Source: a virus. From it: 64,000 nucleotides of DNA. Shown here piece after piece: positions 1 through 34,193 of the stretch (position 1 is the first letter of the stretch; each line of letters begins with the position of its first letter). The notes below the pieces were generated by a model. That model was not told the DNA's origin. It saw only the letters and a list, made by a program, of their open reading frames with translations, and made no database searches. The stretch covers positions 1 to 64,000 of IMG/VR virus record IMGVR_UViG_3300032397_000003. One strand, given 5' to 3'. Position numbers and translations under genes: made by a program.

Positions 1-100
1 CATCAGAGAATACAGAAATATTCTTAGATTCATTATAAAACTTAATAAATTCTTCAAATATTTTTAAAGTACCTTCTTCTAATCTTTTATATCTTTTCAT
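1..100 (-). CDS. Partial hypothetical protein with shared N-terminal leader (MKRYKRLEE...), runs off window
   Basis: ATG at 98-100 reads MKRYKRLEEGTLKIFEEFIKFYNESKNISVFSD, open to the window edge; not in the ORF track. Confidence 0.8.
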   Translation of the reverse strand, partial: MKRYKRLEEGTLKIFEEFIKFYNESKNISVFSD

Positions 101-103
101 CTA

Positions 104-610
104 TTACACTCTATCCATAACATTTTTCATAATTCTAACTAAAGTCTTTTTCATACCTTTAGCTACGTCTGTTATTTCCATTTCAGGGTAACTGTAGGGA
201 GCCATTAGGCCACGATACAAAGCAGCCCCTATTAAATTAATAAATTGTGGTTGAGTTGGTAAGAATTTTGCATTAATAAATTGAGTTCCAAGCGCTATCG
301 CTTCTTGTGCTGACTTTATATTATTTATACCACTGACAGCTTCTTTGATATCTTTTTTCTTAGAGCTTTTTTTACATCCTTCTTTAAAATCTTCTATTTT
401 AAGACTTGATGTAAAATCATTGATCTGTTTCAAAAATTCGTCACCATGTTTATTATCTGCAAATACTATTCCTTTAAGTAATTCAATAAACTTACCTTGT
501 TCATCTTCATTACTGATATCTTTCATATCTATAAGTGCTTTTACTGCTTCTAATGTTTTATCTTCTTCAGCATCTTCTTTTATTTTAAATTTTGGTACGT
601 ATTTTTCCAT
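104..610 (-). CDS. Hypothetical protein, putative head-internal protein (leader MEKYVPKFKIKE)
   Basis: 168-aa ORF abutting neighbours; leader motif; two halves separated by IKE. Confidence 0.75.
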   Translation of the reverse strand: MEKYVPKFKIKEDAEEDKTLEAVKALIDMKDISNEDEQGKFIELLKGIVFADNKHGDEFLKQINDFTSSLKIEDFKEGCKKSSKKKDIKEAVSGINNIKSAQEAIALGTQFINAKFLPTQPQFINLIGAALYRGLMAPYSYPEMEITDVAKGMKKTLVRIMKNVMDRV

Positions 611-1051
611 TTATTTTCCCTCTTTATTTAATTCGTCTTGGAAGTCTGTTTTTGTAGTGTAGTAGGCATTGTTCTCAAAAAAATGATCGCTTGATATCTT
701 CCTCGCAAACATTTCTTGAATAGCTTTTATGACTTTATTATCTTCATATTTTTTATCTAAAGATACATGTTCATATTCAATCTGTGATCCTATATCTAGT
801 TGTTCTTTCGTTATTTTAGAACAATCCCCTTTAGATTTACCACCGGATAGTATAACTGATAAAATTGCATAAACATATTGTTCTGCTATATCCGAATCTA
901 TTTTTAATTCCTCTTCTGCCCATTTATGAAACTGTTCATGATCTTTAGGAAAAGGATTAGATATAATAAATTCCTTTATTTTTAATGGTAGAGATTCGTC
1001 GGTTAAATCTAATAGTGAATCTTCCTCTTTAAATCGTTTATATCTTTTCAT
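611..1051 (-). CDS. DUF5661-like protein with MKRYKRFKEE leader
   Basis: C-terminal EQLDIGSQIEYEH...ARKISSDHFFENNAYYT matches the EQLxxGxxxExEH...IAxDHxxExxxYYT pattern. Confidence 0.65.
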   Translation of the reverse strand: MKRYKRFKEEDSLLDLTDESLPLKIKEFIISNPFPKDHEQFHKWAEEELKIDSDIAEQYVYAILSVILSGGKSKGDCSKITKEQLDIGSQIEYEHVSLDKKYEDNKVIKAIQEMFARKISSDHFFENNAYYTTKTDFQDELNKEGK

Positions 1052-1081
1052 AGTACCTCTTTATTATTAAAAGTGTAGATT

Positions 1082-1276
1082 TTATATCTCATGAATTATG
1101 TTAAGTATCTTATCTGCAGCCCGCTTATTACCCGTTTTTAAAAGATCATCGGCTATTATTTGTAACAATTTACTTGCGTCTTTATGTTTTAAATAGTCCA
1201 TAACATGCTGACTTATTTCTAAATGGCTTGTTGACTCTCTAAATCTTTTAAAATTAAAAGGTATATATCTTTCCAT
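1082..1276 (-). CDS. Small hypothetical protein with MERYIPFNFKRFRE leader
   Basis: GAGGG RBS and TACTAATA motif upstream. Confidence 0.75.
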   Translation of the reverse strand: MERYIPFNFKRFRESTSHLEISQHVMDYLKHKDASKLLQIIADDLLKTGNKRAADKILNIIHEI

Positions 1277-1300
1277 TATTATCCCTCAACAACATATCTT

Positions 1301-1308
1301 TATTAGTA
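1301..1308 (-). promoter_or_regulatory. TACTAATA phage promoter motif (class A)
   Basis: Intergenic, 25 nt upstream of ATG 1276; recurrent motif. Confidence 0.7.
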
Positions 1309-1319: not shown

Positions 1320-1538
1320 CTAAAACTTTTTTGTAAAACTGAATTCTGCTGATTTAATACTACCTACACCTAATTCTACTTGTGGATTTATATCTACTTT
1401 AATACCTGCTTTAAATGTTACATCATCAGGTAATTCAGTTTCATACTTAACTTCTGCATCTAAGGATTTAATTTCTAATTCTTTATCTTGTATTAGTTTT
1501 TTAATATTTATTTTTGGTTTTAATTTAAATTTAAACAT
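1320..1538 (-). CDS. Hypothetical beta-rich small protein
   Basis: 72-aa ORF overlapping upstream stop. Confidence 0.65.
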   Translation of the reverse strand: MFKFKLKPKINIKKLIQDKELEIKSLDAEVKYETELPDDVTFKAGIKVDINPQVELGVGSIKSAEFSFTKKF

Positions 1539-2031
1539 TATTTTTATCCATGTTTTTAATAGAAACCAAATTATTTTTTGTTACTTCAAAGAATACTGCA
1601 CCATCTCTTGTAATACACCCATCATATTTATCAAATATTTTTGTTTCATTGTAGAGATAATTTATAAACTCTATATTATCCCATGCTTGTGCAGATTCAA
1701 CTATATCTTTTGGATTAAGGGAATTGTAAACATTGTTAAACTCTTCTTCTTTAGATGGAAATTCTTCATAGTCATCAGGAATAAAAGGATCCCATTCATT
1801 GAGAAATATAATAGCATAGTTAACTAATTCTATAACTCTCCTATCATTCTTTTTTCGGAGGTCTAAAGTTCTGTTAGTTGCTTTAAATATTCGTTGAATA
1901 TTTCCATAATGATTTGAACGTTCAGGATTGTTGGAACAAAATATAACAGGTTCATCCCCTTGTCTTGTATCCCTTCTATAATTGTAAAAAAATTCTTCTT
2001 TTTCTCTAAAAAAAGATTTATACCTTTCCAT
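1531..2031 (-). CDS. Putative ADP-ribosyltransferase-fold protein with MERYKSFFRE leader
   Basis: YNYR...VIFCSNNPERSNHYG...YDGCITRDGAVFF resembles the phage ART-PolyVal-type pattern. Confidence 0.5.
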   Translation of the reverse strand: MERYKSFFREKEEFFYNYRRDTRQGDEPVIFCSNNPERSNHYGNIQRIFKATNRTLDLRKKNDRRVIELVNYAIIFLNEWDPFIPDDYEEFPSKEEEFNNVYNSLNPKDIVESAQAWDNIEFINYLYNETKIFDKYDGCITRDGAVFFEVTKNNLVSIKNMDKNNV

Positions 2032-2214
2032 TTATTTGGAACCCATTTGTAATTTTTTGATTTTAAAATTTATATTTGCTATCTCTTCAAGCATTAAACC
2101 ATAAGATATATTCATACCTTTTTCTTTATATTCAAAAGCTTGAGATTCTTTTTTTCTAAGCTTTCTATTTAGATCCTCTAGTGTTTCTGCTTTTTTTGGT
2201 TGATACTCTTCCAT
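2032..2214 (-). CDS. Small hypothetical protein
   Basis: 60-aa ORF tightly packed in operon. Confidence 0.6.
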   Translation of the reverse strand: MEEYQPKKAETLEDLNRKLRKKESQAFEYKEKGMNISYGLMLEEIANINFKIKKLQMGSK

Positions 2215-7863: not shown

Positions 7864-8109
7864 CTACTCTTCTAAATCAATATCGTCAATAGTTATACTA
7901 CTGATTGCTTGCTGCTGTTTTATATGCCTCTCTTGATTACCCACAAAACTTTTTAAATATCCTTTCACCATAATAGTTAAATGGTCTATTATTTGTTCAT
8001 TAGTATCAAGTATAATATGATTTTCTTCGCCTATCTCATACTGTGATAATATAACATCCTTAAATCTTTTTAAGTCTTTGTTTTTAATATCAATCTTTAG
8101 TCTTGCCAT
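7864..8109 (-). CDS. Hypothetical protein, possible fibre chaperone (start reassigned to MARLKID, 8109)
   Basis: TAATG overlap with tail-fibre stop; GAGG RBS. Confidence 0.6.
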   Translation of the reverse strand: MARLKIDIKNKDLKRFKDVILSQYEIGEENHIILDTNEQIIDHLTIMVKGYLKSFVGNQERHIKQQQAISSITIDDIDLEE

Positions 8110-11100
8110 TAGTTTAATACCTCTATAACTGAATTTGTACTTGTAATAGTATTCCCTGCTCTTGCTGCACTCCATTGATAAGTTGCATTTAATTGACCGG
8201 TTGCTGTTGTATCTATTGTCACTGCTGAAGTAGTTACTATTTGTCTTCCATAGACTGTCATATCTGCTGAAGAAGCCGCATATATAGTAGTTGAACCTTG
8301 TACAAATATAGTACCCGTAGCACCTGTAGTTCTACAAGTCATTATCAGCTCAGCAATAAACAAACTATTTGTTAAAGTTACAGGAAAAGCATCATCAATT
8401 GAACTTGCTACCGTAACACTCCCTACTTTTATTCTAACTGAAGCTGTGTCGGCGGCGGTACAAGATATATGACCATACATTTTAAGTCTTATAGTTTTTC
8501 CTGCTACCCAGAAATTAGCTGGGAGTAATGAAACCCCCACCCCCGTTCCTATTACACTTGTTTCTGTAGTTGTATTCCCAACGGTAGCACTTGCTGTCTG
8601 AGTAAATATAACACCTGACAAACTCTTTGTTATTCCAGCAGATTGCGATCTTATACAGGCTTGAGTTGAATCGTTCCATATGTCACCAGACACCGGACTT
8701 GTCGGAGCTGTTCCAGCATTCATACATAAAGATGCTCTTACTGTAGAACTTGCACCTATGTGTACTAATGCTGTTGGAGCTGTGACGTTCACACCAAGAT
8801 AACCAGCGTTAGATATACGCATTCTTTCCGAGCCATCTGAGGTAAAGTCTCCTACTGTATTGGTTTTAAAATATATAGCACCTTTAACAAGATGTTCTGT
8901 CGCCGAATCATTCTCAACCAATGCCCCGAATCCACAACCTGGAACCCATTCTGCAGCTCTACCACTAGGATCTGGTTTCTCATCTTTCCAACCATAGAAA
9001 TAGAACAGCCCAAGATTGTCACCTTGATTAACTACTACTGGAGATGCTGATGTCCCCCTTGACCTTCTGAAATTCATATAGGGTGATGAACCTGCGGATG
9101 CTGCTGTATATCGTGTTGCCTGAACACCCGTTGTAGAGGCTGTTCCTTCTATATCTAATGCCATTGCTGGTATAGTTGTACCAATACCTAACTTTCCGGC
9201 AAGATAGTTATCTGCTGTTCCTACCATATAAATATTCCATCTATTTGTTGCAGATGCTAAAGATCCATAAAATCCATAATTGTTTGTTGCTCCAGTCATA
9301 GCAGACGGGACGTAATATCCTATTTGGTTAGTAATAGATGAGCCTGAACCAATTGTTGGATTTAATAATGAATAATGATACATTAGATTTAAAGCAAAGG
9401 ATGCAGCTTCTGTTACTGGTGCTGATATAAAAGAATAGGCATTAGAAGTAACATCAGATTTAATAGTTCCGCCTTGATAAACAGCATATTGTGTTGTAGC
9501 TCCAGTCATTGCTTTTGCAAATGTTGCACCTACAGCAGTCGAAGCACTAGTACCCTGAGCAATTCTTCCATCACTATAAAAACGAAATTTCTCTGAAATA
9601 TCTGTTGTTCCATCTGCTGTGGATATTTTTATATCCGCTTTCGGGTAAACTCCAGACTGAGTTCCATTCGCTACTGATTCAATACTAGAACAGATATTTC
9701 CTGTGACATGGTCAGAATCGTTTGAATACCATTGTATTGTTCCATAAACATTAGTTGAAGCTACTATAGTATCATTTCTTTGTAGGGTTATTGTTGGATA
9801 AGTACCTTCTGTCATTCCAGATAAATGTAAACCTATAGATGATCCGAATGTTAATGGTGTTGAAGTGCCTATACCTATATTTCCCAAATTATCTATTCTC
9901 ATTTTCTCGGTTAATGTCCCTGAAGTTAGAGTTGATAATGATAGATATCCTTTAGTTGAAGTATCTATTGCATCATATTTTCTACCAGCTATACCAGCAA
10001 AGGGTACTTGAGTTGTACTGGTGTAAACACCGCCAAGAGTTAATTGTCCGCCTAAATCAATACCTTGTGAATTTGTTGTTCCGATAAAAGCATTACCAAA
10101 TGAATTTGTAATAGTATTGACATCATTTATAGCAAGTTTTTGTACAGGGGAAGTAATACCAATACCAACATTCCCCCCGAAATAATTTATTCCACTTACT
10201 GAATAAATAGAATAATTGTTTGTACTAGCTCCAGATATTCCTCCAATGTAAATACCATATTTTGATGATCCTGTTGCAGTAGTATTTGCAGATAGATTTA
10301 TTCCATATGAAACTGTACTTGCATCTGAATGATACCCATTCATACTTCTTATAGTTAAGCCACTTATTGTTCCAAATTTACCAGCCCCTGTTCCAAAAAT
10401 ACCAAGATCGGCACCGATAAAGTTTGTTACATTCCCTGTTCCTAAAATACCACCAGTAAAAACAAGTCCTGATAGATTGGTTACAAGACCAGCTCCATTG
10501 TTATAGGCAGAACCTGTCATTGCTCTAATATCTGTATGGTTATATACAGATAACCCTGTAGTAGTTACGGTAACAGTTGTAACACATCCAGTAGAACCTG
10601 TGTCTGTAAATGAATTAGTTCCTGTCTTTGCCTCTGCAACTTTTGCTGTTAATGTAACTGTAGCAGAAGCAACTGTAACGGTCCAATTTGTAGTTATAGT
10701 TGCATCCAGATTAAGTGCTGTATTGATCGCTGTTGCAAGAAGATTAACAGTAGTCTCTGTCAAATTACTTACAGCTACAACTGAAGAAACACCTCTAATG
10801 GAAAAAGTAATATTTCCGGCACTAGTTGGTACTACTGTTGCAACAATTCTAATGACTTCTGCTGTCGCTACATTTGTAGATGCATAAGATACAAAGTTTA
10901 CCCCATCTTCTGCTACTGTAACAGCTCCTGTAGTTGCTCCAAAAGTAGATATAAGTGCATAACCTTTTGAAGCAATAGTTGAATTTGAAAGAGTAGTGGC
11001 AGCATCTATTTGACTCGCTGGAGAAGTCATTCCAGCACCTATCCCGACAAATTTTCCAAGGAATATTTTATCACCATAGAACTCGGCAACCGTCCCCGAT

Positions 11101-14100
11101 GTGATAGTGTTAATCGGCGTTGCTGTAAATCGTATAAATGCACCATGATTTGACGGCGTCCAGTTACCAGAAGAGAACGCTCCGAAGCCTGCTTGATTTG
11201 CAAACCGGGATGTTCCATCATATCCACCCATCTGGAAATTAAAAAGAGTATCACTGTCAAGAATCGCTTTCGGACTTGCAATAGTCCCTCTATATTTTAC
11301 TGATCTTATTACATTCGATGTGTTGCTATCATAATAGTCGGACATTTCAAGGACTTGGGCATTACCTTCTTTAATAAAGTCCATATTACCGGAAGAAAAA
11401 GCAGTAGTCCCTACCAATAAATCACCAGCTTCATTTATCTGAAATTTTAGCCCCTGCTCTATAACACTAATATTTGTTATTGATCCATCAAATGTTGAAG
11501 TAGGTGTAAAAATTAAATCAGCATTGTCAGCAAGACAAGTAATTGCTGACATATAATTTCCTGCACCCATAGTAACGGAAACTGCTGCCCCACTCGCTGT
11601 TCCTATTTTTGGAGTTATTGTTCCAACTGTATTTCCAGCAACAGTATAATAAACCTTATATCTCCTACCAGCTTTAATCGAAACTGATGTAAGATTAACA
11701 TTCGCAAGAACAGCATTTGCTGTTGATCCTGATGTGTGGACAAAAGCACCCCCAACAATCGCCCAGTTTGTCCCCGTCCAGTTATTTGCCCCTGAGAAAT
11801 TCCTATCTACGACATTTATTATAAGTTCAGAACTTTCAGCTTTAAATACTTCAAACTTACCTGTTGGAGCTGCTGTACCTATACTAAATTTTCCCGCTGA
11901 AGTAATCCTTGCACGTTCATTAGCTGCAAGTGTTCCACCTGTAAAGAATGTTAAATCTTTTCCAGTAGTAGCTGTACCTATAGATAATACCCCTGAATTT
12001 GTATAGAGATAACCATCATTAGGTCCATTGATAGTCCAAGGAACTCCTGAGAATCCTGAACTGTTTATACCCATATCTATAAATCTTGAAGTATCTGAAC
12101 CATTATCAGCAGTAGCAATCCAATCACTTGAAGCTGAAGCGCCATTACTTAAATTTTGAATATTATTCTGAATATAACTATTCTGAGTATCCCATGTATT
12201 TATTCTCATATTAGGAAAAGTTGGTCCAGTACCCGTTCCATAAACACTTAAAGAACCATCAAGATAAGAAAAATCTGCTTTTGAAACTCCAGCAGGGTCT
12301 TTAATCACTAGAGGTAATCCCGCCTTCATTTGAATTGTTGTAGTTTTTACCGCATAGGAATCATCTATAATAATATTATTTTTATGATATGTTTCCCCTG
12401 AGATACCAACACCACCTGCAAAAATTACACTTGCATCTGTAGTAGAAGTTGCTGCCTTAGTTCCAAGAAAATTTACTTGACCTGTAGTTAAGTTAGTGGA
12501 GTTTCCTCTTATATTTAAAACTCCACTAGCTACAGTGTCTCCTATTATAGTTTGTCCACCAGATTTACCTGTTATAAGATCATTTGATACTGCTTTTACT
12601 GTTTGAGTAACACCATTACCAAAAGTATTATCTCCAGTATTTGTACCACTTGTATTTCCTGCAACAGTATATTGAGCTGCTGTTAAATGGTAATATTCTT
12701 CTGTGGGTACACTTCCAGTTCCCCCTTGTAATCCGGCTAAATTACCATGAAGAGTTATAAGTGGTGATACTATATAAGAATTTCGTGTTGAACCAGAATG
12801 TACAAAATTTACAGTTGTTGTATTATTTGAAGTTGCATACATTATAACCCCAATTTTATCGGTTGCTACAACAGTATAGGCTGGTTGAGTATTAAAAGTA
12901 GTATAAAGAGCATAATTAGTTGTTGTAGAAGTAATTGTAGGACTTATACTACTAAATAATTGTTTCCATACAGAAAATGCAACAGTACTCTCATTAGAAT
13001 ATCCGGAAGGAGTTTCAATAGTTACTACTGTATTTGATGTTCTTGCTGTTATTCTATAAAGTCCTAATGGAGTTTGTAAGTATGAATCTGTAATTATAGT
13101 TTCACCAGTATCTATTTCAGATGTTGCAAAAGGTGTTCCAGTAGAAGCGGTAGCAGTCCTTGAAGTTAATGTTCCTGTTATAGTAACTGTTCCTGATGCT
13201 GGTCTTACTCTTCTAATAGAAGTTGATAAAGTACTTATTCGTCCTCCAGTAGTAGAAGAAACAGAGGCATATTTAGCAAATTCCCAAACTCCTGCATCAA
13301 TATTAGTTCTACCTAATGCAATATTATATAAATAAGCTTCTCCTAATACTGTATTATTTGTACAATTCCAAGCATCAACTATTTCTGAAGCCATATCTGG
13401 TATTTTAGATAAAGTGCATACTTCATTTATATTATTGGTACTTATAGGAATTATTGTTGTATCATTAAAATAAAAATTTATACCATTTGATGCAGAAGAA
13501 GTAGCCGATGCTCCATTTACCCAAGCTGCTCCATTATATCTTAAAATTTGATCTACTGTTGGAGTAACAATATTTGTATCAGACATAGCAGATAATTGAT
13601 TTATTTGTCTTGGATTAACATATATAGAACCTACCGTTGCATTCTTTACTATAACTCTACCAACTCTTGCTATTATAGAAGGTGCTGTGGGAGATATATT
13701 TGTTAATGCTCCAGCAGTAGTATCAGATAAAAATAGATCATCTCCTGTATTCCAAGAATCAGTATTATAATCATGCACTACTCCCCTAACAGTAACAAAT
13801 CCTTCTTCACCTATATTTATATTTTGTGTTAATACCCCTACAACATAAGCAGTTGTAAGAGAATCCCCTTTAGCTAAAGCAATAGTAGGAAATACTCCGG
13901 AAGCTCCTGATAAATATACAACTTGTCCATTTAACATATTTCCAGAAGTATTATTTATTGCTCTAATTAGAGTTTCCTGCCCTATTTGTAAATTAACATC
14001 ATTATCAATATTTACTGAAAGAGTTTTATAAGTATTATCGTAATATAATTTTCCTTCTGAGAAAGCTCCTACAGTTGGATTACTATTGAATTGGAATCCT

Positions 14101-19568: not shown

Positions 19569-19576
19569 AGTAGCCC

Positions 19577-19780: not shown

Positions 19781-19784
19781 ATCC

Positions 19785-19985: not shown

Positions 19986-20281
19986 TAGGACTTCTTAATC
20001 TCTTTAGGCATACATTTACCAGCAGAAGCACTCCATCCATAATCTTTAGCACAAACACCTTTAAGTTTGGCTGAATTATCAGCATTAGCACATGATCCAC
20101 CACCAGCAGTTTTTCCAGGACAATCTTCTTCAACTTCTATCTCAGGAAGTTTACAAGATTCACATATCATCCCTGTTCCTTCTATACTTTCTTTTTTCTT
20201 TTTGTCACAAGCTTCTTTCTTGTCACATTTTTCACAATCACACTGACCATCTTCTTCAAAAAACTTTTTGTATCTACTCAT
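19985..20281 (-). CDS. Cys-rich protein with MSRYKKFFEE leader
   Basis: 10 Cys in 98 aa; GAGG RBS. Confidence 0.7.
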   Translation of the reverse strand: MSRYKKFFEEDGQCDCEKCDKKEACDKKKKESIEGTGMICESCKLPEIEVEEDCPGKTAGGGSCANADNSAKLKGVCAKDYGWSASAGKCMPKEIKKS

Positions 20282-20294
20282 CTTAATTACCTCT

Positions 20295-21184: not shown

Positions 21185-22264
21185 CTAAAATAATGTCTTG
21201 TTATATTTCAATATGCTCTTTGAAAGATATTCCTCCACAGTGCAGTAATTATTAGTAAGTAAAATTTCAGAAACAAAATTCTCATCCGTATCTTCTACAT
21301 TTATATTTATAACTGTTAGCTTAACCCCACTATCCCTTAATTTTAATACCATTTTCAAGCCCGCCAAATCGTTATCCGGGATGACATACACCTCTTTAAA
21401 TTTTTTAAGATATTCAAGTTGTGCATCTGAAATCTGACTCCCGAAAGTGCAGCTACAATTTTTAGATACTTTATCCCACAGCTTCGGTATAGAGCCTATT
21501 CCTTCGGTAAGGTATAATGGTTCATCATAATTTAAATGATCTATATTAAAGATTGTGTTCTTGACAAAACTACCGGATTCATACTTCACTTTCTTATCAA
21601 GTAAATAAAATAACACCCTATCTACAATTATTTCATTACCTTTATATAACTTATAATCAGATATATGAATATTATTATTTTTACAACATTCTTTAAAATC
21701 TTTACTTAATTGTTCATATGTAATATCATGTGAATCATAATAAGTTTGTAGATATTCAAATTGCATTAGTTTTCTAAACTCCACACATTTGATGTTTTTA
21801 TTTGTATCCTGTATACAATAAGCAAAATAATCTGAATAGGGATCGGTAAATGATCTAACTATCTTAAATTCTTTACAGAACTCTTTTGTAAATCCTCTTT
21901 GTTTTAAATAATAAAAATCTTCTGGATTATCAATCTCTTTATGTATAAATCTATAAGTCATAGAACTATCTATGCTTGATTTTTTTACTTCTGGTTTATT
22001 TGGAGTAGTTACTTGTGGAGGAGTATAAGTATAATTACTTCCTCTTTCTTTTAAGAGAGTTGATATATGTTTTGTTACTCCACACTTATAACAAGATATA
22101 ACACCACTATTTACATTTACGGATGCATTACCATAGTCCTTGTCCTGATGGAAAACACATATAATAGATAACCACCCCTTTGAATTAGGGTGTCCTTGAT
22201 ATTTAATGTTCAGCGTATTAAGTGCTTCCATAACATTAACATTTTTATTGAGAGTGTTTAACAT
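21185..22264 (-). CDS. DNA primase (DnaG/TOPRIM type)
   Basis: Zinc finger CVFH...CYKC; YLKQRG; TOPRIM LTEG, TFGS, IPDNDLAG. Confidence 0.88.
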   Translation of the reverse strand: MLNTLNKNVNVMEALNTLNIKYQGHPNSKGWLSIICVFHQDKDYGNASVNVNSGVISCYKCGVTKHISTLLKERGSNYTYTPPQVTTPNKPEVKKSSIDSSMTYRFIHKEIDNPEDFYYLKQRGFTKEFCKEFKIVRSFTDPYSDYFAYCIQDTNKNIKCVEFRKLMQFEYLQTYYDSHDITYEQLSKDFKECCKNNNIHISDYKLYKGNEIIVDRVLFYLLDKKVKYESGSFVKNTIFNIDHLNYDEPLYLTEGIGSIPKLWDKVSKNCSCTFGSQISDAQLEYLKKFKEVYVIPDNDLAGLKMVLKLRDSGVKLTVININVEDTDENFVSEILLTNNYCTVEEYLSKSILKYNKTLF

Positions 22265-23848: not shown

Positions 23849-24511
23849 TTAGTCCACCTCTATTTTATTCCATTTGTCTTCTAAGTTATATTTATTTAGA
23901 ATTTTTAATAATTTAGTTTTATCGTATTGATTTTCATTTTTAACTATTCGTAACCGTTCTCTATATTTAGATTTACCTAAAAATAACATTATAGCAATAA
24001 GATATTCCAAAGAAAAAATCTTAAATTTCTTACCTTTAATTTCAACTTTGTTTGAGTGATCAAATGCATCTTGTGTTATAGCATCCCCAGGAACTAAAAA
24101 TTGAATAGGATTTCCTTTAATAATTAAAAATTCCCCTTCTTCTTTAGCCCTATATTTCTTTTTAAGAAAATCATATAAATCAGTCAAACTAAATAATAAA
24201 CCTTTCTGTTGTTTCTTTATGAATACATCTATGTCATCCGTTAGATGAGGGGTACTATAGTAAAGTAATGCTGTTGCTCCACCTATTACATAATCTTCAA
24301 TTATATCATTTTTTTCTACTTCATTTAGCATATCTATAACTTCAGGCATTTGAAAAGATTCGGAAAACTTATATCTTATCTTTCCAAAGAATAAAGCTTT
24401 TTCCTGTAATCGTATTAAGGCTTTAAACTTATCAAAGTAAGAACTATTTAATAGTTTTAATTGATAAATATCCTTAGATTCTTCAAATTTATGTGGTGTA
24501 TATCTTTCCAT
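23849..24511 (-). CDS. Nucleotidyltransferase (AbiEii/DUF6036-like) with MERYTPHKFEE leader
   Basis: YVIGGATALLYY...TDDIDVFI is the GG..DxD Pol-beta-type motif; SLEYLIA. Confidence 0.8.
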   Translation of the reverse strand: MERYTPHKFEESKDIYQLKLLNSSYFDKFKALIRLQEKALFFGKIRYKFSESFQMPEVIDMLNEVEKNDIIEDYVIGGATALLYYSTPHLTDDIDVFIKKQQKGLLFSLTDLYDFLKKKYRAKEEGEFLIIKGNPIQFLVPGDAITQDAFDHSNKVEIKGKKFKIFSLEYLIAIMLFLGKSKYRERLRIVKNENQYDKTKLLKILNKYNLEDKWNKIEVD

Positions 24512-24561: not shown

Positions 24562-26646
24562 TTATTTATCAATTAAATCCTCTACATCATTTTTTTGTCC
24601 AAAAATATACTCTTCATATTTGTCTGTAAGTTTTCTTTCCTTAGTAACTTGTTCTTTGAGAATCTCTCTTTCTTCTATTGATTCTACTTCCATTTCAATT
24701 TTTTCAAATTCTTCCCTTAATCTAGTTACCCCTTTTTTTCTTACTTCTACAAAATCATTTAGATTAAAGTCACTATATTTATTTTTACTCTTAAAAAAAT
24801 GTTGTCCTCTCATAGAACCCTCTCTTAAAGAAGATTCCATAAAACATTCAAAACTAATATCATCTACTGTTTCTTTTAGTTTTCTTCTACCTAGTTTTCT
24901 TTCAAGAAGTCTCCAAGTTTTTCTTCCTCTTCTTTGTCTTTCCTTTAAACTGTATTTACCTTCTTCATTCATTTCTGGTCCTTCATCAACTAAATTACCA
25001 TCAGCATCTAAATTTCCTGAATCATCTAAGGAAATATCATCTTCAGGCTCATCACCAAAACCTTCTTCCTCGTCTGGTATAGTTTCACCCGCTTCTTTAG
25101 CTCTTAAAGATTCATCTACCCAAAAATCAACTACTTGACTATCATAAGGTAGAAATTTATTATATATTGTTTTTATAAGTTCTGGTGGGAGTTTTTCTCC
25201 TCCAGTAACTCTATCTTCTAATGCTACTATAACATTATTCGCTAAATCAAGTAATGAACTTTGTGCTGATATAAGATCATTATTTGTTTGTGATTCTGGA
25301 TAAGGCATAGATAATGAAAATTCTATTTCATCTAATTCAAATTCCCCTGTATGTATTAAGTGAATTTTTATTAACTGAGATATATTATTTAATAATATGG
25401 ATTGGAATCTATATATAAGTCTAGCAAAAGGTTTGAATTGTTCAACATAAGATGTACCTGATTCTCCAAAACTAGAATCACTGGGGTCTATAAGTTTTCT
25501 AGGTAATAGACAAGCATTATAAATATCATCCTTAAGAAGTTCAATATCATCAATACCTTTTAATTCTATATCTGCTGCTATCTGCTCATACTCAAACAAA
25601 TCTTTGATTGTAACTATGATATCTCCAATTCCTGGTAATTCTTTTTTAGATGTACCAAATCCTGAATTTAACATTTCATTTAAAAACTCAGTAGCTTTAG
25701 CAAATTTTTCTGTAGGACTTACAATATTTGGTAAATCCAATTTGTAAATTTGTTTAGGGAACATTGCTCCTCTAGCTATTATCTGCATAGCCATAGCAGC
25801 ATCATACTGTCTATATGGAGCCATAGCGTGAATAAAAGTTGGTATACCAAATGGGACAAATGGACTTTTATTTGTTATATTTCTAAAGTGTAAAAATTTC
25901 CAAGGAGGAAGTACTTTATCTTCTACAACAAAACCAAGTAAGTACTCTTTAAAATAAGAAGCTGAATTTTTTTTATTCTGAATCATATCTATCAGATCAT
26001 TTACAGAACTTATAGAATTTCTATAGTCATGCAGTTTATGTTGTGAATCCATTAAAGCAGCATGAAGATCAACCGGAGAAAATTCCATACGTTCTTTTAA
26101 ATACCTAATAGGAATTCTTTTTATTTCATTAACCCCTACATTATCAAATCCCAGTACCCATCCTGCATTACCATATTGCACTATATCAGCAACAGTTGGT
26201 CTGAGTAACTCATTAAGATTTATATCATCAAAAAACTTTTCAATATACTTCTTAACTTTCTCCTTTGCTTCTACAAATATTATTTGGTTGTTTGAGTCTG
26301 CTTGAAGTACCTCATCTGTCATGATCTCCATGGACTTAGTAATTGGGGAGCAGTTAAAGAACAAAAGATCACAATCGTCATACACTGAAAGCATGTTAAC
26401 CCAAGAATCATTAGCTTCGTCATGGCATCCCGACATCCAGTACCGCCAGAGTTCCTTAACATCGTTTGGGAATTTCTCCGTTTGCATCCTTTCAAAGGGC
26501 TTATTCTTTTCATCTACCCCTTTTACAGTCTTGATAATATCAATTTTATTTTCAATCTTTTCAGCTTCTGGATTTATTCCAAAACCAAACATTTTTTTTA
26601 ATCTGTTAGTTATAGCACTTGATTGATCTATTTTTTTATCTGTCAT
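24562..26646 (-). CDS. Portal protein (T4 gp20-like) with long C-terminal extension
   Basis: DIVQYGN, FLHFRN...PFG, IARGAMFPKQIY, DDIELLKDDIY...LPR, FARLIYRFQ pattern. Confidence 0.82.
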   Translation of the reverse strand: MTDKKIDQSSAITNRLKKMFGFGINPEAEKIENKIDIIKTVKGVDEKNKPFERMQTEKFPNDVKELWRYWMSGCHDEANDSWVNMLSVYDDCDLLFFNCSPITKSMEIMTDEVLQADSNNQIIFVEAKEKVKKYIEKFFDDINLNELLRPTVADIVQYGNAGWVLGFDNVGVNEIKRIPIRYLKERMEFSPVDLHAALMDSQHKLHDYRNSISSVNDLIDMIQNKKNSASYFKEYLLGFVVEDKVLPPWKFLHFRNITNKSPFVPFGIPTFIHAMAPYRQYDAAMAMQIIARGAMFPKQIYKLDLPNIVSPTEKFAKATEFLNEMLNSGFGTSKKELPGIGDIIVTIKDLFEYEQIAADIELKGIDDIELLKDDIYNACLLPRKLIDPSDSSFGESGTSYVEQFKPFARLIYRFQSILLNNISQLIKIHLIHTGEFELDEIEFSLSMPYPESQTNNDLISAQSSLLDLANNVIVALEDRVTGGEKLPPELIKTIYNKFLPYDSQVVDFWVDESLRAKEAGETIPDEEEGFGDEPEDDISLDDSGNLDADGNLVDEGPEMNEEGKYSLKERQRRGRKTWRLLERKLGRRKLKETVDDISFECFMESSLREGSMRGQHFFKSKNKYSDFNLNDFVEVRKKGVTRLREEFEKIEMEVESIEEREILKEQVTKERKLTDKYEEYIFGQKNDVEDLIDK

Positions 26647-26669: not shown

Positions 26670-27884
26670 TTATTTATTAGTATTAAAAAATTCTTCATGT
26701 TTATTATAATGTTTTTGTAAAAAATACTCTTCTTCCAATCTTTCATAATTTTCAATATACCACTCAATTTTATCTTTGTTTTCTTCGACAAATTTTAAAT
26801 AAATATTTCTTTGCTTTGAATATTTAGTCTTATTAGCAGGAATTTGTAGTATCTTTAGAATTCTATAAAAAGAGGCATAACCTAAAATATGATTATGATT
26901 TTTATTATATAATTCAAATAATTCAGTTATTTCAATTATATCAAAATAATATTGTAGTATGAAAGATATATCTAATTCAACATATCCTGCATGGGATTTA
27001 CCTACATTCACTTTATTTTCTATTCTCTTCTTCCCACCTTTTTCTCCTGCTCTTTTCATTATAGATGGATCATCATTTTTAGTTTTCATTTCTTTTTCTT
27101 TTTGCTTTACTATAATATCTGGATTATCTTTAAAAGCTTGTTTGATATTATTTATTTTTTCTTGTTTTTGATCTGGAGTTTTATTTTCCCAATTTTCAGA
27201 TAATTTTTTATTTGCATTAAGTTTTATGTCTGGATTTTGCTCTAAGGTTATTTTTAAATTTTTAACTTGATTCTCTACTATTTCAGGATTATCCTTTTTT
27301 GTTTTACTAGCTTTTTTTCCAGCATTTTTCATTATAGAGGGATCATTTCTTTTAGTTTCCATTTCTTTTACTTTCTTTTTCTTCTCGTAGTCTGGAATGT
27401 TATTTATAGTTTTTTTATAATTTTGTACCCGTTTCTCCTCATTTTCTTTAGATAACCCCCTACCACCATCTCCTCCATTTCTCATATTGGTTAAAATACC
27501 TAATTTTTTATCAGCTCTACCAATCATTTTTATAAAAAATCTTTCCAATAAATAAGAAGTTTCTTCTTCTAAATTTTCACAAATTTTATAAATTACAACC
27601 TCTTTTCCTTCACGATGAATCTTATTTATTGTATTAACTTTATGTCTATTGTATTTTGGTTTTTCTTCTTGAATCGATTCTGCTTCATATTTTTTAATTC
27701 TATTAGCTTCATTTAAATGATCGTTCAGTCTTAAATCTTTTCCTTTACCAATATAAAATGGGGCACAGGGAAAGTCGATACCAATCCCATTTTCTTGATA
27801 ACTATAAATTCCTGGTTTTAATGGATTACAATAAACGTATACATAAAATCTTAAATCATTCATACTATTACCTATTCTTATCAT
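26670..27884 (-). CDS. Free-standing GIY-YIG (LEM-3-like) homing endonuclease
   Basis: FYVYVYCNP...PFYIGKGK..R..DH...ERFFI...LTNMRNGGDG followed by K-rich repeats; may start at 27863. Confidence 0.82.
   Translation of the reverse strand: MIRIGNSMNDLRFYVYVYCNPLKPGIYSYQENGIGIDFPCAPFYIGKGKDLRLNDHLNEANRIKKYEAESIQEEKPKYNRHKVNTINKIHREGKEVVIYKICENLEEETSYLLERFFIKMIGRADKKLGILTNMRNGGDGGRGLSKENEEKRVQNYKKTINNIPDYEKKKKVKEMETKRNDPSIMKNAGKKASKTKKDNPEIVENQVKNLKITLEQNPDIKLNANKKLSENWENKTPDQKQEKINNIKQAFKDNPDIIVKQKEKEMKTKNDDPSIMKRAGEKGGKKRIENKVNVGKSHAGYVELDISFILQYYFDIIEITELFELYNKNHNHILGYASFYRILKILQIPANKTKYSKQRNIYLKFVEENKDKIEWYIENYERLEEEYFLQKHYNKHEEFFNTNK
26675..26682 (-). promoter_or_regulatory. TACTAATA promoter for portal, embedded in last codons of endonuclease
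   Basis: AAT ACT AAT AAA TAA; 29 nt upstream of portal ATG. Confidence 0.7.
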
Positions 27885-28007: not shown

Positions 28008-29567
28008 CTATAACTTCCATTCATTATTGATATATACTATTGCTTGTTTCATACCATTTTCAAATAGTATACCATTTCCATGTAACCAAGATGAAGCACC
28101 ATCACTATTATATAATTGTTGTAATTCACAAAGACAAGGTATCTGTAATACATCCCTCCAAATATTATATGAATGACTATGTCCTATAATAGCTTTATTA
28201 TATGCTATTTCTATTCCTCTAAAACTACCCTTTGATCCATTACTTCCAGCATGCCCATGAGTATTCATTTCACATCCATTGATAATAAAAGATTGCCCTT
28301 TTCTCAGAAAAATATGATTACTGATAGTAAAATGTTTTTTAAGATACTCTTCAATTGGATTTTTATTATTGGCTAAATAAAGAAATAATTCAGCTCCTAT
28401 TTTCATATTTGCTACATCTTTTACAAATTCCCCTTCCTCTAGATATCTATTTACAAAATAATTATGATTAGAATGTATATGATAAAATTTTATATCTGGG
28501 AATTCTTTCTGCCACTGTTCTAAAAAATTACCTAAATAATTTAATTCTTTTTCTAAAGATTGTTGATGTTCATCTACTTGAGTTCTTAATCCATTTTTAT
28601 TTTTTGTATGAGGATTTATAGATAAAGCATCGAAACTATCATGTATAAATATATTTTTAGGTTCACATAGAGAGGTAACTTCTTTAAATAGTGTCATAGC
28701 TTTTTGAGATTCTACTCCTATATGAGGTTCACATATAAGTGAGTTTACTTTTAAATTTGTAACTTTATTATTTGTATAATATTTATTTAAATCTTGAAAT
28801 CCTTTACCGTCAAAGCGAATTGCACGTTGATGAAAGATTTTATCATCCTTTACTTCTATAATCCATCCAGCTAAACAATTATCTTCTTTAGCTATTTGTC
28901 CTTGTCTTGTATTTGCATAAGTAGGTGTACATATAGTTCCAGTACTTAATACAATATGAGGTGTTTCATTATGTTGTTTTGGAATAGTATTTAACATTTG
29001 TTTTGAATGAGCTATGATAAGAGATTGTTTTTTACCCCCATATCTTTGTAATCCTGATAAGGGTAATATCTGTTGGGGACTTAACATAAAATCTTTTGCT
29101 ATAAGATTACTATTAAAAATATACTCAGTTATAAAATATTTTGAATATTTTTCTATAGTAGCTTCTGAAAATGAATCGTTACTATTAACCCCCCTCATAA
29201 CAAATAAGAGTGGTTGAGCTTGATTAAATTCACAGTAATTAAGTATAGACTCCCAGAATAATTCATTTATTTTTGAATTAGGTATAATAGATGATATAAA
29301 ATATTTCTTATTCTTTTCTTTATTTGTAAATTTTATATCTATGTCTTCTCTAGCTACAGTATTTTTATTTGTTATTAGTTCCTTCTTAGCCAATGTAAAT
29401 GAACCATAATACTTATCTATTAAAGATTCATTATATTTACCATGGCTCCTATAATAACCTCTAGTTATTTCTTTATTATTTTTTTTAAAAAACTCATTAT
29501 GTAAACACTGAATATCCTCTAGTACTGATTTCTTTGTTCCAGTTAAAAGTTTTTGATTGATTGTCAT
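28008..29567 (-). CDS. T5 A1-like metallophosphoesterase/nuclease
   Basis: HDSFD, HSNHN, HGHAGSNGSKGS, IGHSHS, SSW motifs; N-terminal helical repeat. Confidence 0.72.
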   Translation of the reverse strand: MTINQKLLTGTKKSVLEDIQCLHNEFFKKNNKEITRGYYRSHGKYNESLIDKYYGSFTLAKKELITNKNTVAREDIDIKFTNKEKNKKYFISSIIPNSKINELFWESILNYCEFNQAQPLLFVMRGVNSNDSFSEATIEKYSKYFITEYIFNSNLIAKDFMLSPQQILPLSGLQRYGGKKQSLIIAHSKQMLNTIPKQHNETPHIVLSTGTICTPTYANTRQGQIAKEDNCLAGWIIEVKDDKIFHQRAIRFDGKGFQDLNKYYTNNKVTNLKVNSLICEPHIGVESQKAMTLFKEVTSLCEPKNIFIHDSFDALSINPHTKNKNGLRTQVDEHQQSLEKELNYLGNFLEQWQKEFPDIKFYHIHSNHNYFVNRYLEEGEFVKDVANMKIGAELFLYLANNKNPIEEYLKKHFTISNHIFLRKGQSFIINGCEMNTHGHAGSNGSKGSFRGIEIAYNKAIIGHSHSYNIWRDVLQIPCLCELQQLYNSDGASSWLHGNGILFENGMKQAIVYINNEWKL

Positions 29568-29643: not shown

Positions 29644-30354
29644 ATGGAAAGATATAAACGAAAATATGATGAAAATATTTTTATGGGCGAGACGATGTCA
29701 ATGTTAGAAATGGTTTTACATCCTGATAATTATGTAAATTTAATAAAAGATAAAATAATTAGTTTTTATAATAAAAACATATTTACAGATATAAATGATT
29801 TAATAGTATCACTAAATAGTTACTTAATAGATGAAAAAATACAATTTAAGTTATCAGATAAAAAACTATCTAAATATGATAGTGGTTTACAATCAGCTAG
29901 ATATTATCCCAAAGCTAATGTAATAGTAATTTTATATACTGATGACATTTTAAATGCCTTTAAAATGAGAGGTCAAACTAATGACTATTCAGATTTTAAA
30001 TGGTTTTTAGAAGACTTTGAAGAATTTCTTGGGCATGAAACAATTCATCGTATGCAATCATTTAAAGATAAAGTTAATAACATAAAAGCTACATCGACCG
30101 AAAATGAAAAGGAACATTATTCACAAACTAAAGAAATAATGTCCTATGCATGGCAAATTGTGCAAACATTCAAAATGTATGGGAAAGATGAAGATTATAT
30201 AAAATTTATATTATCAAGTAAAAGAGATGAACCAAATGTAAAAGTTATAAATTTTATTCCTGTATTTAAAAAATATTATAATTTATTTGATAAAGATTCT
30301 AATGTAATGAAATTACTATATAAATATATTTATTTATATATTGATAATAAATAG
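29644..30354 (+). CDS. HExxH metallopeptidase-like protein with MERYKRKYDE leader
   Basis: LGHETIHRMQ...HYSQTKEIMSYA; paralogue of 33483-34193. Confidence 0.7.
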   Translation: MERYKRKYDENIFMGETMSMLEMVLHPDNYVNLIKDKIISFYNKNIFTDINDLIVSLNSYLIDEKIQFKLSDKKLSKYDSGLQSARYYPKANVIVILYTDDILNAFKMRGQTNDYSDFKWFLEDFEEFLGHETIHRMQSFKDKVNNIKATSTENEKEHYSQTKEIMSYAWQIVQTFKMYGKDEDYIKFILSSKRDEPNVKVINFIPVFKKYYNLFDKDSNVMKLLYKYIYLYIDNK

Positions 30355-31048: not shown

Positions 31049-31558
31049 TTACTTAGTGATTCTTTTGTATCTTTCTCTAACTACCGGAGGAGCATCCTTG
31101 TCAGCATCTCCATCAATATCATTCATATCAAGAGCAGGGGCACCTTCTTCTTCATCAAGCTCCTTTTCATCATCCTTTTTTTCTTCATCATCTTCTTCAT
31201 CTACTTTCTGCATAATACCATCTGTGATTTCTTCTACATCATCAGAATCTTCCTCTGATTCCATAAAATCATCAAAATCACTTGATGCTTCTAATTCCCA
31301 TACTGTATCAATAAGGGTAGCTACTGCTGGGTCTGTTGCTCCTATTGTATCAATAATTGAACCAATTACATCTTCTACTTGATCGATTGCATCTTCAATA
31401 ACAGAAGAATCTACTTCATCTTCTTCTCTTAATTTTCTTACTTCCCTTCTTATAGCATAAAGTTCTTTAATTGCTTTTTTTAAAGTTTTAGCTGTAGAAG
31501 GTTTTTCTTTTTTACTCTCACCAAATAGTGAAGTGTATAGTTTGTATTTTTTTGACAT
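31049..31558 (-). CDS. Highly acidic protein, prohead core/scaffold-like candidate
   Basis: D/E-rich; many [LF]xE sites; C-terminal ERYKR; TACTAATA at 31588-31595. Confidence 0.5.
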   Translation of the reverse strand: MSKKYKLYTSLFGESKKEKPSTAKTLKKAIKELYAIRREVRKLREEDEVDSSVIEDAIDQVEDVIGSIIDTIGATDPAVATLIDTVWELEASSDFDDFMESEEDSDDVEEITDGIMQKVDEEDDEEKKDDEKELDEEEGAPALDMNDIDGDADKDAPPVVRERYKRITK

Positions 31559-31612
31559 TTGAGTTATCCCTCTTTTTGTTAATTTTTTATTAGTATATAA
31601 TTTTTAAATAAT

Positions 31613-32152
31613 TTAATTCTCATTTACAAATGTATTTATCGCTTCCCGTATACTACTTGATAGAATCCCTCTATATAATGTTAATTCGTATTGTTTATTG
31701 ATAACCTGTTTTACAAATAAACTACCGAATAGTTTTGTACATTCCATAATAAGAGGGATTTTATTTCCATTCTCATCTTTGATTATTTCTACAATAATAT
31801 CCCCTCTTTTAATAGCAATAGCTTCTTCATCTATATTACCTGATAAAGGAACTTTTAATTGTATTGGAAGCAAATCCCAAATATCGATAGCGTCTGTATT
31901 TATTTGTTGATTGATACCATCATAAGTTTCAAACATCTGAACATTGGAAGCATAAGGATGTTTTATAATAACATTATTAAGTATGTAACTAGCTACAGAT
32001 TCTTGAGTTTCCCCCATTACATCCGCTACTGTTTTTGTAATTCTTAAAATCTTACATTCAGTACCAAGTAATGTTTTAATATTAAAATCATTTAATTTTC
32101 TTAAAACCGGACTGAGTTTCTCACTCAGAGAATCCACAATAGAATATGCCAT
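31613..32152 (-). CDS. Putative head-completion/neck protein
   Basis: DVMGE...KRGDII pattern and context next to tail-completion-like gene; weak. Confidence 0.4.
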   Translation of the reverse strand: MAYSIVDSLSEKLSPVLRKLNDFNIKTLLGTECKILRITKTVADVMGETQESVASYILNNVIIKHPYASNVQMFETYDGINQQINTDAIDIWDLLPIQLKVPLSGNIDEEAIAIKRGDIIVEIIKDENGNKIPLIMECTKLFGSLFVKQVINKQYELTLYRGILSSSIREAINTFVNEN

Positions 32153-32154
32153 CT

Positions 32155-32436
32155 TTATATCCTATTTATTAAGGCTAGGTGTAAACTATTTTTAAAATCT
32201 TTTTTTACTATATCATTAGCCGATCCTTGACCGAAATTATCAATAACATCCAAAATATTATACTGCTTCAATGGGCCTAATTTAATAGTTCTAACTTTTT
32301 TAGCCCACTTAGCATTATCCTTATCTGAGTTTATTTTCATAAACTCTTCAAATATATCATTTATTATTTTAGCATTAACATCTGATTTAGGATCCACTAC
32401 TGTCATTACTTCTTTATATCTTTGATATCTTTTCAT
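32155..32436 (-). CDS. Hypothetical protein with MKRYQRYKE leader
   Basis: 93-aa ORF; TAATG overlap. Confidence 0.7.
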   Translation of the reverse strand: MKRYQRYKEVMTVVDPKSDVNAKIINDIFEEFMKINSDKDNAKWAKKVRTIKLGPLKQYNILDVIDNFGQGSANDIVKKDFKNSLHLALINRI

Positions 32437-33482
32437 TATGCCCCCGTTGTAAAAGTTAAACTATAATCATCTTCTAAATTTATTCCATCACAGGATTTAG
32501 CTGAAGTATTTATTAGTATATTATATTCAGTTAAAGATGTTAAATTACTTCTAGGATTTATAGTAAGAATTTTTGAAGCTATATCAAAACTCATATCTGC
32601 ATCAATATAAGGAACCATATCTAAATTACTATAAACACTATCTTCGTTCATAGCAACATTAAAAGTTAAAACTATATTTGTGCTTCTTGCAACACCTGTA
32701 GCATTATTTACAATATTAGAAGTAATAGTTGGTATAGAAGGGGAATGTGCAGTATCCAATAAAATATTCTGTTCTAGATTTTTTTGATTTTCTAGTTGTG
32801 ATAAACGGAGTATTATGTCATCCACGTGATATACAATCTTAGGAATATTTATACCCCCAGTGGTATCTTGAGTGGGACTATTTTGCATATTAAGAACTAT
32901 ATATGAGCACTTGACGTCAACAGTATGGGTAACCGGGTAGAGTTTTCCAACTGCAAACTGAGATTCTATATCGAAGGCTAGCTGTCCTCTTTCTGTTGTA
33001 TAATTTAAATCTATAACCATAGAACATAATACACCATTTAAAGTAACTGGCACATCTAGTCTTGTTAAACAAGATTCGTCTGCCGCAAATAGAGTCATTC
33101 CCCTCCAGAAGTCATATGGAGTAGTAAAGAAGGTTGTTAGTGGTATCGTAAGTAGCATAGGAATAAAGGAAACATAAGCACCAACTAATTCACTATAGAA
33201 ATTACCATTTACTTGATAGTGGCTACGATAATCGAGCGGGGCGTCGTCCGAAATATTGTACGCTGTGAACGGAAACTTTCCATTACTTGTTTTAAAGGCA
33301 TCTATTGATCTTCTGATAGAATTAGCATCATCAGAAGTATCGGCTAGAATTATTCTTTTTCTAGCCTCTACCGGGGTTTCATTAGGATATACCATTTGAG
33401 AAAAATATAATATAACCCTCTCTAATACAGCTTGAACTGCATAAGGATAGTTTACCGAAGAGGAATAATAACGTTCTGACAT
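32436..33482 (-). CDS. Putative tail-completion/terminator protein with C-terminal Ig-like (Big_5) domain
   Basis: C-terminal NNATGV..TNIVLTFN..M...LTINPRSNL...TEYNI.I....DYSLTFTT. Confidence 0.6.
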   Translation of the reverse strand: MSERYYSSSVNYPYAVQAVLERVILYFSQMVYPNETPVEARKRIILADTSDDANSIRRSIDAFKTSNGKFPFTAYNISDDAPLDYRSHYQVNGNFYSELVGAYVSFIPMLLTIPLTTFFTTPYDFWRGMTLFAADESCLTRLDVPVTLNGVLCSMVIDLNYTTERGQLAFDIESQFAVGKLYPVTHTVDVKCSYIVLNMQNSPTQDTTGGINIPKIVYHVDDIILRLSQLENQKNLEQNILLDTAHSPSIPTITSNIVNNATGVARSTNIVLTFNVAMNEDSVYSNLDMVPYIDADMSFDIASKILTINPRSNLTSLTEYNILINTSAKSCDGINLEDDYSLTFTTGA

Positions 33483-34193
33483 TTATACTAACCTCAAATC
33501 ATATCTAACAGGATCATTTATATATTGTACAATATATTTCCTAAATTTTAAAAAAGCATTCCTATTATGCTTATTCATTTCATTTATATAAAAAGTAATA
33601 TGTAATGATTGACTTCTTGCAAAATTGCCTGATTTTAACATTTCCATAATATTATTATTACTATATCCTGAATATCTTAAACTTTCTATATACATATAAG
33701 CATAAGCCATAATCTCTTGTGGATTTTTCATATATTCAATATCTATATCATTATCTATTGATGAGCCTTCAAAATTATAAAAATTTATTTTATCTCCAGC
33801 TCTAACATAATATTGTCCACGATGAACTAATTCATGTGATAGTAGTATAATTAATTCTTTTTCAAATTGATTAAAAACATCAAGATTATCTTTAGATGTA
33901 TAAAAATAAAAATCATCTGTTAGATAGATAATTATATTATCTTTATTTATAACTCCTTCCACTACTCCTTTATTTACTTTCATTGAATCTATAATAACAA
34001 ACTGTATTTTATAGGTATAAAACTTTTCATTAAATAACTGAAGTGCATCACCTTTAAAAAAAATTAAAGTCCTTTTTAATTGCTTTAATTCATCTTTTAA
34101 AATATCTAAATATTTATCTACATGAACAACTGCTTCATTAAATCTTCCTAGTTGATGATAATAAGGATCAAATTTTCTTTTATACCTTTTCAT
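33483..34193 (-). CDS. HExxH metallopeptidase-like protein with MKRYKRKF leader
   Basis: LSHELVHRGQ...YMKNPQEIMAYA. Confidence 0.7.
   Translation of the reverse strand: MKRYKRKFDPYYHQLGRFNEAVVHVDKYLDILKDELKQLKRTLIFFKGDALQLFNEKFYTYKIQFVIIDSMKVNKGVVEGVINKDNIIIYLTDDFYFYTSKDNLDVFNQFEKELIILLSHELVHRGQYYVRAGDKINFYNFEGSSIDNDIDIEYMKNPQEIMAYAYMYIESLRYSGYSNNNIMEMLKSGNFARSQSLHITFYINEMNKHNRNAFLKFRKYIVQYINDPVRYDLRLV

Follow-up and report, generated by a model that had tools for sequence, protein, structure and literature searches.

The internal head proteins of bacteriophage T4 carry a capsid targeting sequence (CTS), MKTYQEFIAE, which is removed by the prohead protease gp21 (PMC8442874). Its residues 4 and 7 serve targeting and residues 8 and 10 processing, and gp21, which cleaves after L/I-x-E, itself has L-I-E at residue 9 (PMC9026906). 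Across the T-even phages, the internal proteins are diverse defence proteins with only the CTS in common (PMC3012670), and T4 Alt, an ART, is packaged and injected (PMC5512222). In phages phiKZ, 201phi2-1 and SPN3US, gp21-related proteases process the propeptides of head and ejection proteins, with S/A/G-x-Glu as the cutting motif (PMC9026906, PMC5694885, PMC10052503). Here, we analysed the first 64 kb (the window) of the complete viral record IMGVR_UViG_3300032397_000003 (G000; 155,573 bp, GC 29%), in which short, similar leader peptides begin many otherwise unrelated proteins; coordinates outside the window are given with the prefix G000. This leader is probably the form that the T4 CTS takes in this phage lineage, greatly expanded. 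No description of the leader system was found in the literature searched.

Genes were taken from greedy open reading frame (ORF) calls, a crude set of 247 ORFs genome-wide, and counts are hence approximate. The record IMGVR_UViG_3300030419_007010 (G001; 89% complete) and three leader-bearing contig fragments (G005, G006 and G007) were used for comparison. The strict pattern ^M.[RK]Y.{1,10}[FYLIMVW].E, applied to the N-termini, was fitted by 23 of the 247 ORFs, compared with a mean of 0.59 (maximum 4 in 2000 trials) after shuffling of residues 2-20 and with 0.36 expected from the rate at internal positions; among 847 actual internal Met sites, none fitted. The motif, which a preliminary description of the window had put forward as a CTS-like tag, thus stands well above composition-matched shuffled N-termini. 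All 14 N-termini listed in that description were present at the starts assigned to them, and its weaker cases at 2214, 15804, 31558 and 58562 also read as claimed. Including variants, which have one to four extra residues (MMVERY..., MVKRY..., MENERY...), there are about 31 leader genes, 18 of them inside the window. Within the strict set, Tyr4 is present in 23/23, Arg3 in 19/23 and Phe/Tyr7 in 14/23; Glu stands mostly at position 9 or 10, and every leader has hydrophobic-x-Glu, with mostly Phe or Tyr at P3. The consensus reads M-[KEN]-R-Y-K-[RP]-[FY]-x(0-4)-hydrophobic-x-E, and the leaders are 9-20 residues long, typically 9-14. The leader genes of the window are listed below with the portal gene and two promoter cores; class B is one of two promoter-like motifs described further on.

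1-100, minus strand: 5' end of a leader gene, MKRYKRLEE, which is complete (58 aa) at G000 155370-155546.
104-610, minus strand: leader gene, 168 aa, MEKYVPKFKIKE; cargo of unknown family.
611-1051, minus strand: leader gene, 146 aa, MKRYKRFKE; DUF5661 matched only weakly (23.4 bits, under cut-off); its ortholog in the relative G006 is also leader-bearing.
1082-1276, minus strand: leader gene, 64 aa, MERYIPFNFKRFRE; first gene behind the class B promoter at 1301-1308.
1301-1308, minus strand: class B promoter core TACTAATA; seven leader genes in a row follow it, up to the protease-scaffold gene.
1531-2031, minus strand: leader gene, 166 aa, MERYKSFFRE.
2032-2214, minus strand: weak case, 60 aa, MEEYQPKKAE, position 3 being without Arg/Lys.
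15475-15804, minus strand: weak case, 109 aa, MKKYKVEKPNDKEQFLE; class B promoter 25 nt upstream.
17951-18736, minus strand: leader gene, 261 aa counted from an internal ATG, MNRYKPFFE.
18723-19202, minus strand: leader gene, 159 aa, MERYRPYFNE.
19203-19427, minus strand: leader gene, 74 aa, MNRYKPFVFSE.
19985-20281, minus strand: leader gene, 98 aa, MSRYKKFFE; ten Cys in the cargo.
20295-20720, minus strand: leader gene, 141 aa, MKRYKRFKE; its likely G006 counterpart (N-terminal sequence, by eye) begins MKLYESAF, a diverged leader.
21250-21257, minus strand: class B promoter core, the nearest upstream promoter of the leader cluster 17951-20720.
23849-24511, minus strand: leader gene, 220 aa, MERYTPHKFEE; DUF2204 nucleotidyltransferase (29.7 bits), directly downstream of the portal gene, with a class A (early-type) promoter of its own near 24529.
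24562-26646, minus strand: T4-type portal gene (PF07230), 694 aa, no leader.
29644-30354, plus strand: leader gene, 236 aa, MERYKRKYDE; HExxH at 131, class B promoter at 29599; paralogous to 33483-34193.
31049-31558, minus strand: weak case, 169 aa, MSKKYKLYTSLFGE; highly acidic cargo, class B promoter at 31588.
32155-32436, minus strand: leader gene, 93 aa, MKRYQRYKE; paralog of G000 138286-138573.
33483-34193, minus strand: leader gene, 236 aa, with the long leader MKRYKRKFDPYYHQLGRFNE; HExxH at 120.
58562-59998, plus strand: doubtful case, 478 aa, MALYESKFIRVEE, with Leu at position 3; class B promoter at 58520.

The sequences that follow the leader Glu had been described as mostly unrelated, which agrees with our finding of only three paralogous pairs among the 31 cargos, 28/31 bodies being without similarity to one another. 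No leader was found on recognised replication or tail proteins among the annotated ORFs of the genome, in line with the earlier statement that core replication enzymes lack the motif. At the DNA level, only a GAGG-type Shine-Dalgarno sequence is common to the regions upstream of the leader genes, and the leader codons match genome usage (AGA for 26/33 Arg, TAT for 25/32 Tyr). Because the upstream DNA is unconserved and the codons are those used genome-wide, the constraint acts on the peptide.

The resemblance to T4 covers both the leader and the head genes. As with the T4 CTS, about ten residues precede unrelated proteins, and M1, K2, Y4, F7 and the terminal Glu are held in common. The leader has aromatic residues at positions 4 and 7, those that serve targeting in T4, and a hydrophobic-x-Glu end, and the genome encodes a protease of gp21 fold, a T4-type portal and a candidate gp23-like shell; some leader genes adjoin the protease gene, and one cargo is ART-like, as is Alt. 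Unlike the T4 CTS, the leader is basic (Arg3, Lys5), has mostly Phe/Tyr at P3 where T4 has Leu/Ile, varies in length between 9 and 20 residues and is known from genes alone. It is also borne by about 30 proteins (approximately 12% of the genes), in contrast to a handful in T4, and protease and scaffold are here combined in one 683-aa protein.

This protein, encoded at G000 152440-154491, provides the gp21-like protease that the preliminary description had left to be found elsewhere in the genome, fused to a putative scaffold. It starts with MNKYKTLQE, and its orthologs begin M-N-[RK]-Y-K-T-L-Q-E, a leader-type start that recalls the L-I-E of T4 gp21. A profile of 29 orthologs was compared with gp21-family proteins (PF03420-positive proteins from three T4-like contigs) and matched over residues 16-191 with an hhalign probability of 97.8% (E 1e-12); His97, Ser148 and Asp177 are invariant among the orthologs. 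The AlphaFold2 (AF2) model of residues 1-210 (pLDDT 79) had T4 gp21 chains (5JBL) as its top three Protein Data Bank (PDB) matches in Foldseek (E 1.6e-6, TM 0.57/0.70), the next-best match having E 0.24. From profile comparison and predicted fold, we consider it established that residues 16-191 form a gp21-fold (S77 family) prohead protease domain. The remainder, residues about 200-683, comprises a coiled coil followed by a long acidic tract, with PDB matches of coiled-coil or scaffold type, and for this reason the protein is read as a protease-scaffold fusion. The scaffold part is rich in hydrophobic-x-Glu (9.3 per 100 aa vs 2.7 genome-wide). Run against PDB sequences, the profile of the full alignment returned coiled-coil and acidic look-alikes only. 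When the genome was scanned directly with Pfam for Peptidase_S77 (PF03420) and Gp23, there was no match, and the protein itself had none in Pfam at E 0.01 or in PHROGs. The blank Pfam protease scans are attributed to low sensitivity, since only profile-profile and fold comparison recovered the protease.

The portal assignment rests on PF07230 (Portal_T4; 24.6 bits, cut-off 22.9) and on a blastp match to the gp20-like gene of G001 (2e-9). Directly upstream of the portal gene lies a gene for a GIY-YIG (LEM-3-like) endonuclease (26670-27884, minus strand). Downstream of the protease gene, a 486-aa protein (G000 149907-151367) had an Atlas score of 0.98 against Gp23-bearing clusters and no significant hhalign match to two gp23 homologues (probability 6.7%); on the Atlas score, it is regarded as a gp23-like candidate for the major capsid protein. 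Between the protease-scaffold and capsid genes, on the opposite strand, stands a Cys-rich, homing-endonuclease-like ORF (G000 151702-152394, plus strand).

The first and last 127 bp of the record (G000 1-127 and 155447-155573) are an exact repeat, which is most likely the k-mer overlap left by the assembler in a circular or circularly permuted genome and no biological terminal repeat; the map was taken as circular on this ground. Read in this way, a minus-strand run of seven leader genes extends from the class B site at 1301 (starts at window positions 1276, 1051, 610 and 100, then at G000 155363, 154976 and 154707) into the protease-scaffold gene, which is followed by that for the capsid protein. 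The seven proteins are 58-168 aa long, several are acidic, and none has an enzyme domain. In the T4 gene order, the core genes 67 and 68 hold the equivalent place.

Two promoter-like motifs were distinguished. Class A, TTTAAT-N17-TATATTATA, precedes replication-region genes, and class B, TACTAATA, is found 20-35 nt before sheath, tube, tape-measure, baseplate-region, capsid and portal genes, of which the sheath and tape-measure genes were recognised via PHROGs. Example sites of the two classes in the window are 39676, 44782 and 48199 (plus strand) and 1301, 4309, 6194 and 26675 (minus strand). The nearest upstream promoter was of class B for 25/31 leader genes compared with 97/202 other genes (odds ratio 4.5, p 8e-4).

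Two further genes of the window were noted. A 2394-aa protein (8109-15293, minus strand), encoded in a late-type transcription unit, has an Mtd_N domain (50.9 bits) as well as a BppL_N domain and is probably a receptor-binding protein or tail fibre of giant size. Among the leader genes, a 519-aa protein (28008-29567, minus strand) matches phrog_1745, 'DNA transfer protein' (E 5e-74).

The cargo labels given in the preliminary description fared unequally. The nucleotidyltransferase was upheld by the DUF2204 match, which lies above the Pfam cut-off, whereas the DUF5661 match fell under it. HExxH strings occur in three proteins and one protein is Cys-rich, as described; the search for a SWIM-like CxC...CxH pattern gave nothing. 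The ART-like label found a counterpart in a predicted fold, but on a leader protein outside the window. A PRTase-like domain was also found among the cargos, and a PHROGs scan of ten cargos gave no match.

The ART-like protein is a 416-aa leader cargo encoded at G000 136804-138054 (minus strand). Its AF2 model (pLDDT 88) shows, at the N-terminus, only residues 1-9 below 50. The N-terminal domain resembles phage ART-PolyVal domains in BFVD (E 3e-4 to 6e-2, TM by target at most 0.57); no cultured phage of the collection was found to have it. The best PDB match was a capsid-internal protein, the pre-ejectosome ejection protein of cyanophage A4 (Foldseek E 1e-4). The C-terminal part consists of repeats that are leucine-rich-repeat-like. 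The family is large, with 11,325 cluster representatives at E 1e-3 or better, and prefixes were surveyed in the top 150 of these, 87 of which have the conserved domain start A-R-R-N-P-E... Directly before this domain, Glu is present in 74/87, the modal prefix length being 10, and P3 is L in 36, I in 17, F in 12, V in 5 and Y in 3. The prefixes fall into classes by lineage: M.[RK]Y (13), MK[ST]F..F[IL].E (16), M[IL].[FY] (10) and short prefixes without aromatics (8). The second class, for example MKTFxQFIxE, is very similar to the CTS of T4. A leader is missing from some homologues, and the homologues in three T4-like contigs with gp21 and gp23 genes bear the leader of their own phage or none. 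The earlier proposal of a distinct basic CTS that acts as a modular address tag was borne out in so far as the leader is CTS-like, modular and, on this shared cargo, lineage-specific. The T4 background given with that proposal agrees with the literature (PMC8442874, PMC9026906). The 159-aa leader protein at 18723-19202 contains G-L-Y-T-V-P-L and then G-Y-D-G-F, both shared with the ART-like cargo family; hhalign gave no significant match between the two.

The nucleotidyltransferase cargo (23849-24511) tells a similar story. Its phage orthologs of 215-225 aa all bear variable [RK][YW]...hydrophobic-x-E leaders, and homologues of 150-175 aa, some from NCBI records, begin at the enzyme core and have no leader.

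Relatives at 40-64% protease identity have the same or a related leader. In G006 and G007 (protease identity 58-64%), MKRY leaders occur on orthologous and on other genes. In G005 (portal 34% and protease 40% identical), M[EK][RP]YKS[IV][YF].E begins at least seven genes, and most leader genes lie between portal and protease-scaffold. In cultured phages, no blastn match to 8 kb of the window was found, and tblastn yielded one weak hit for the capsid protein and matches to the C-terminal repeats only for the 416-aa cargo. G001, a T4-like phage unrelated to this one, uses two leader families of its own, MK.L[FL]E.WR.Y[LV]NE and MKLTKSQLKQIIKEE (for example at G001 136311-139006, 140828-141531 and 37826-38914); next to its gp21 protease gene, the gene that occupies the place of the scaffold begins with a leader of the MKLTKSQLKQIIKEE type.

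Beyond T4, three other groups of systems invite comparison. With phiKZ, 201phi2-1 and SPN3US, the phage would share many head-internal proteins cut after Glu by a diverged gp21 homologue, and their propeptides are likewise thought to direct proteins into the prohead. These propeptides differ, however, in being mostly longer than 100 residues, with no common short tag and with a small instead of an aromatic P3, and they belong to jumbo phages with a virion RNA polymerase. Phage P1 loads its Dar antirestriction proteins in an ordered, DarA/Hdf-dependent way and is not known to use a shared short cleaved leader. The leader proteins would nevertheless resemble them in being capsid-packaged, injected with the DNA and tied to head morphogenesis (PMC12810830, PMC9024508). 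The ART-PolyVal-like fold predicted for the 416-aa protein relates it to polyvalent proteins and T4 Alt (PMC5512222), and it would likewise enter the host with the DNA. Unlike in polyvalent proteins, the effectors proposed here are separate small genes, each with its own tag, and not domains of one giant polypeptide.

From these observations, we infer a course that leads from binding to the core through cleavage, packaging and ejection to a role in the host. Prohead assembly would start on the T4-type portal (window 24562-26646), and the protease-scaffold fusion (G000 152440-154491) would form the core, which the tagged proteins would join via their leaders, mainly through Tyr4 and Phe/Tyr7. 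A gp23-like shell (G000 149907-151367) would then enclose the core together with the tagged proteins. The protease would cut after the Glu of hydrophobic-x-Glu and so remove the leader, and the mature cargo would remain in the head with the DNA. The enzymatic cargos (ART-PolyVal-like, nucleotidyltransferase, PRTase-like and HExxH) would be ejected into the host, as are Alt and the internal proteins of T4. Some small acidic leader proteins may instead be parts of the core and be degraded. Injection of the cargos, and anti-defence or takeover roles for them, may be supposed by analogy.

The degradation of leader proteins can be extended into an explanation of its own, by which the tag targets the prohead core and is clipped, and most bearers are degraded core or scaffold accessories like gp67 and gp68 and not effectors. 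The seven small proteins at the T4 gene 67/68 position, several of them acidic and none with an enzyme domain, and the raised hydrophobic-x-Glu density of the scaffold part fit such a role. The bearers, however, include the DUF2204 nucleotidyltransferase, the PRTase and the ART-PolyVal-like protein, and degrading enzymes makes little sense; the ART-like cargo moreover parallels the injected T4 Alt (PMC5512222). We consider this explanation unlikely overall, but a serious alternative for many of the small bearers. A regulatory N-terminus (a degron, an RNA-level context for translation start, or a chaperone or assembly tag that has nothing to do with the head) would account for the six bearers in early-type transcription units and for the A-rich leader codons, which are favoured near start codons. 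It sits poorly with leader codon choice that equals genome usage and with unconserved upstream DNA, with highly expressed tail and capsid genes that have no leader, with the retention of Tyr4, Phe7 and the terminal Glu while other residues vary, and with the quite different leaders that one cargo bears in other T4-type phages; we rate it as very unlikely.

Smaller still is the chance that the leader is no capsid address but the recognition site of a modifying enzyme, such as a radical-SAM/SPASM protein. A gene for one is present at G000 124797-125825 (plus strand), but it belongs to an island of glycan synthesis rich in glycosyltransferases; the closest leader gene is over 10 kb away and encoded on the opposite strand. 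Neither G001 nor the fragments G005-G007 yielded a SPASM domain. The leader has a protease-type motif at its end, and leader genes gather around that of the protease. We give the least credence of all to the shared start as the remnant of one ancestral gene family whose bodies have diverged beyond recognition. Three paralogous pairs among the bearers would agree with such an origin, against which stand the 28/31 mutually dissimilar bodies, the cargo domains with independent homologues that have no leader or other leaders, and the leader itself, which in the AF2 model of the 416-aa cargo is disordered and outside the fold.

The reading as an expanded CTS has to be set against several observations. 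The phage is uncultured and known from its sequence, and cleavage, packaging and injection are proposals drawn from it. P3 is mostly Phe/Tyr and not Leu/Ile as in T4, and the cutting specificity of the protease is assumed to match. About 30 different cargos is far above the number known in T4, and the ejection-protein match of the 416-aa cargo is middling (VIA Z 7.2, rmsd 5.5, 163 residues) and serves as a lead only. Six leader genes, at 23849, 67712, 81498, 145392, 145925 and 148349, lie behind class A promoters, some of them among replication-region genes. The class B motif also precedes the prim-pol operon at 38689, and its presumed nature as a late-type promoter is judged from the genes behind it alone.

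A broader claim, to which we assign an even chance, joins these strands: short N-terminal leaders with a hydrophobic-x-Glu end, swappable between lineages, would form a general address code of uncultured T4-type phages, which in this lineage loads about 30 proteins into the head to be delivered with the DNA and in which the leader co-evolves with a protease-scaffold of aromatic P3 preference. The payload so addressed may include the ART-PolyVal-like family (more than 11,000 sequence clusters), nucleotidyltransferases and the PRTase-like protein. If the tag works as in T4, a motif of ten residues would suffice to read the injected payload of a phage from its sequence. A payload of about 30 proteins, mostly of unknown function, would then supply prime candidates for host takeover and anti-defence that act before phage gene expression. 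It would also mean that the principle of the CTS, which in T4 is known from three or four proteins, can extend to a tenth of a proteome, that the address is swapped between lineages while the cargo is retained, and that a protease-scaffold fusion can act as the hub. The tag could also serve to load foreign proteins into the heads of non-model phages.

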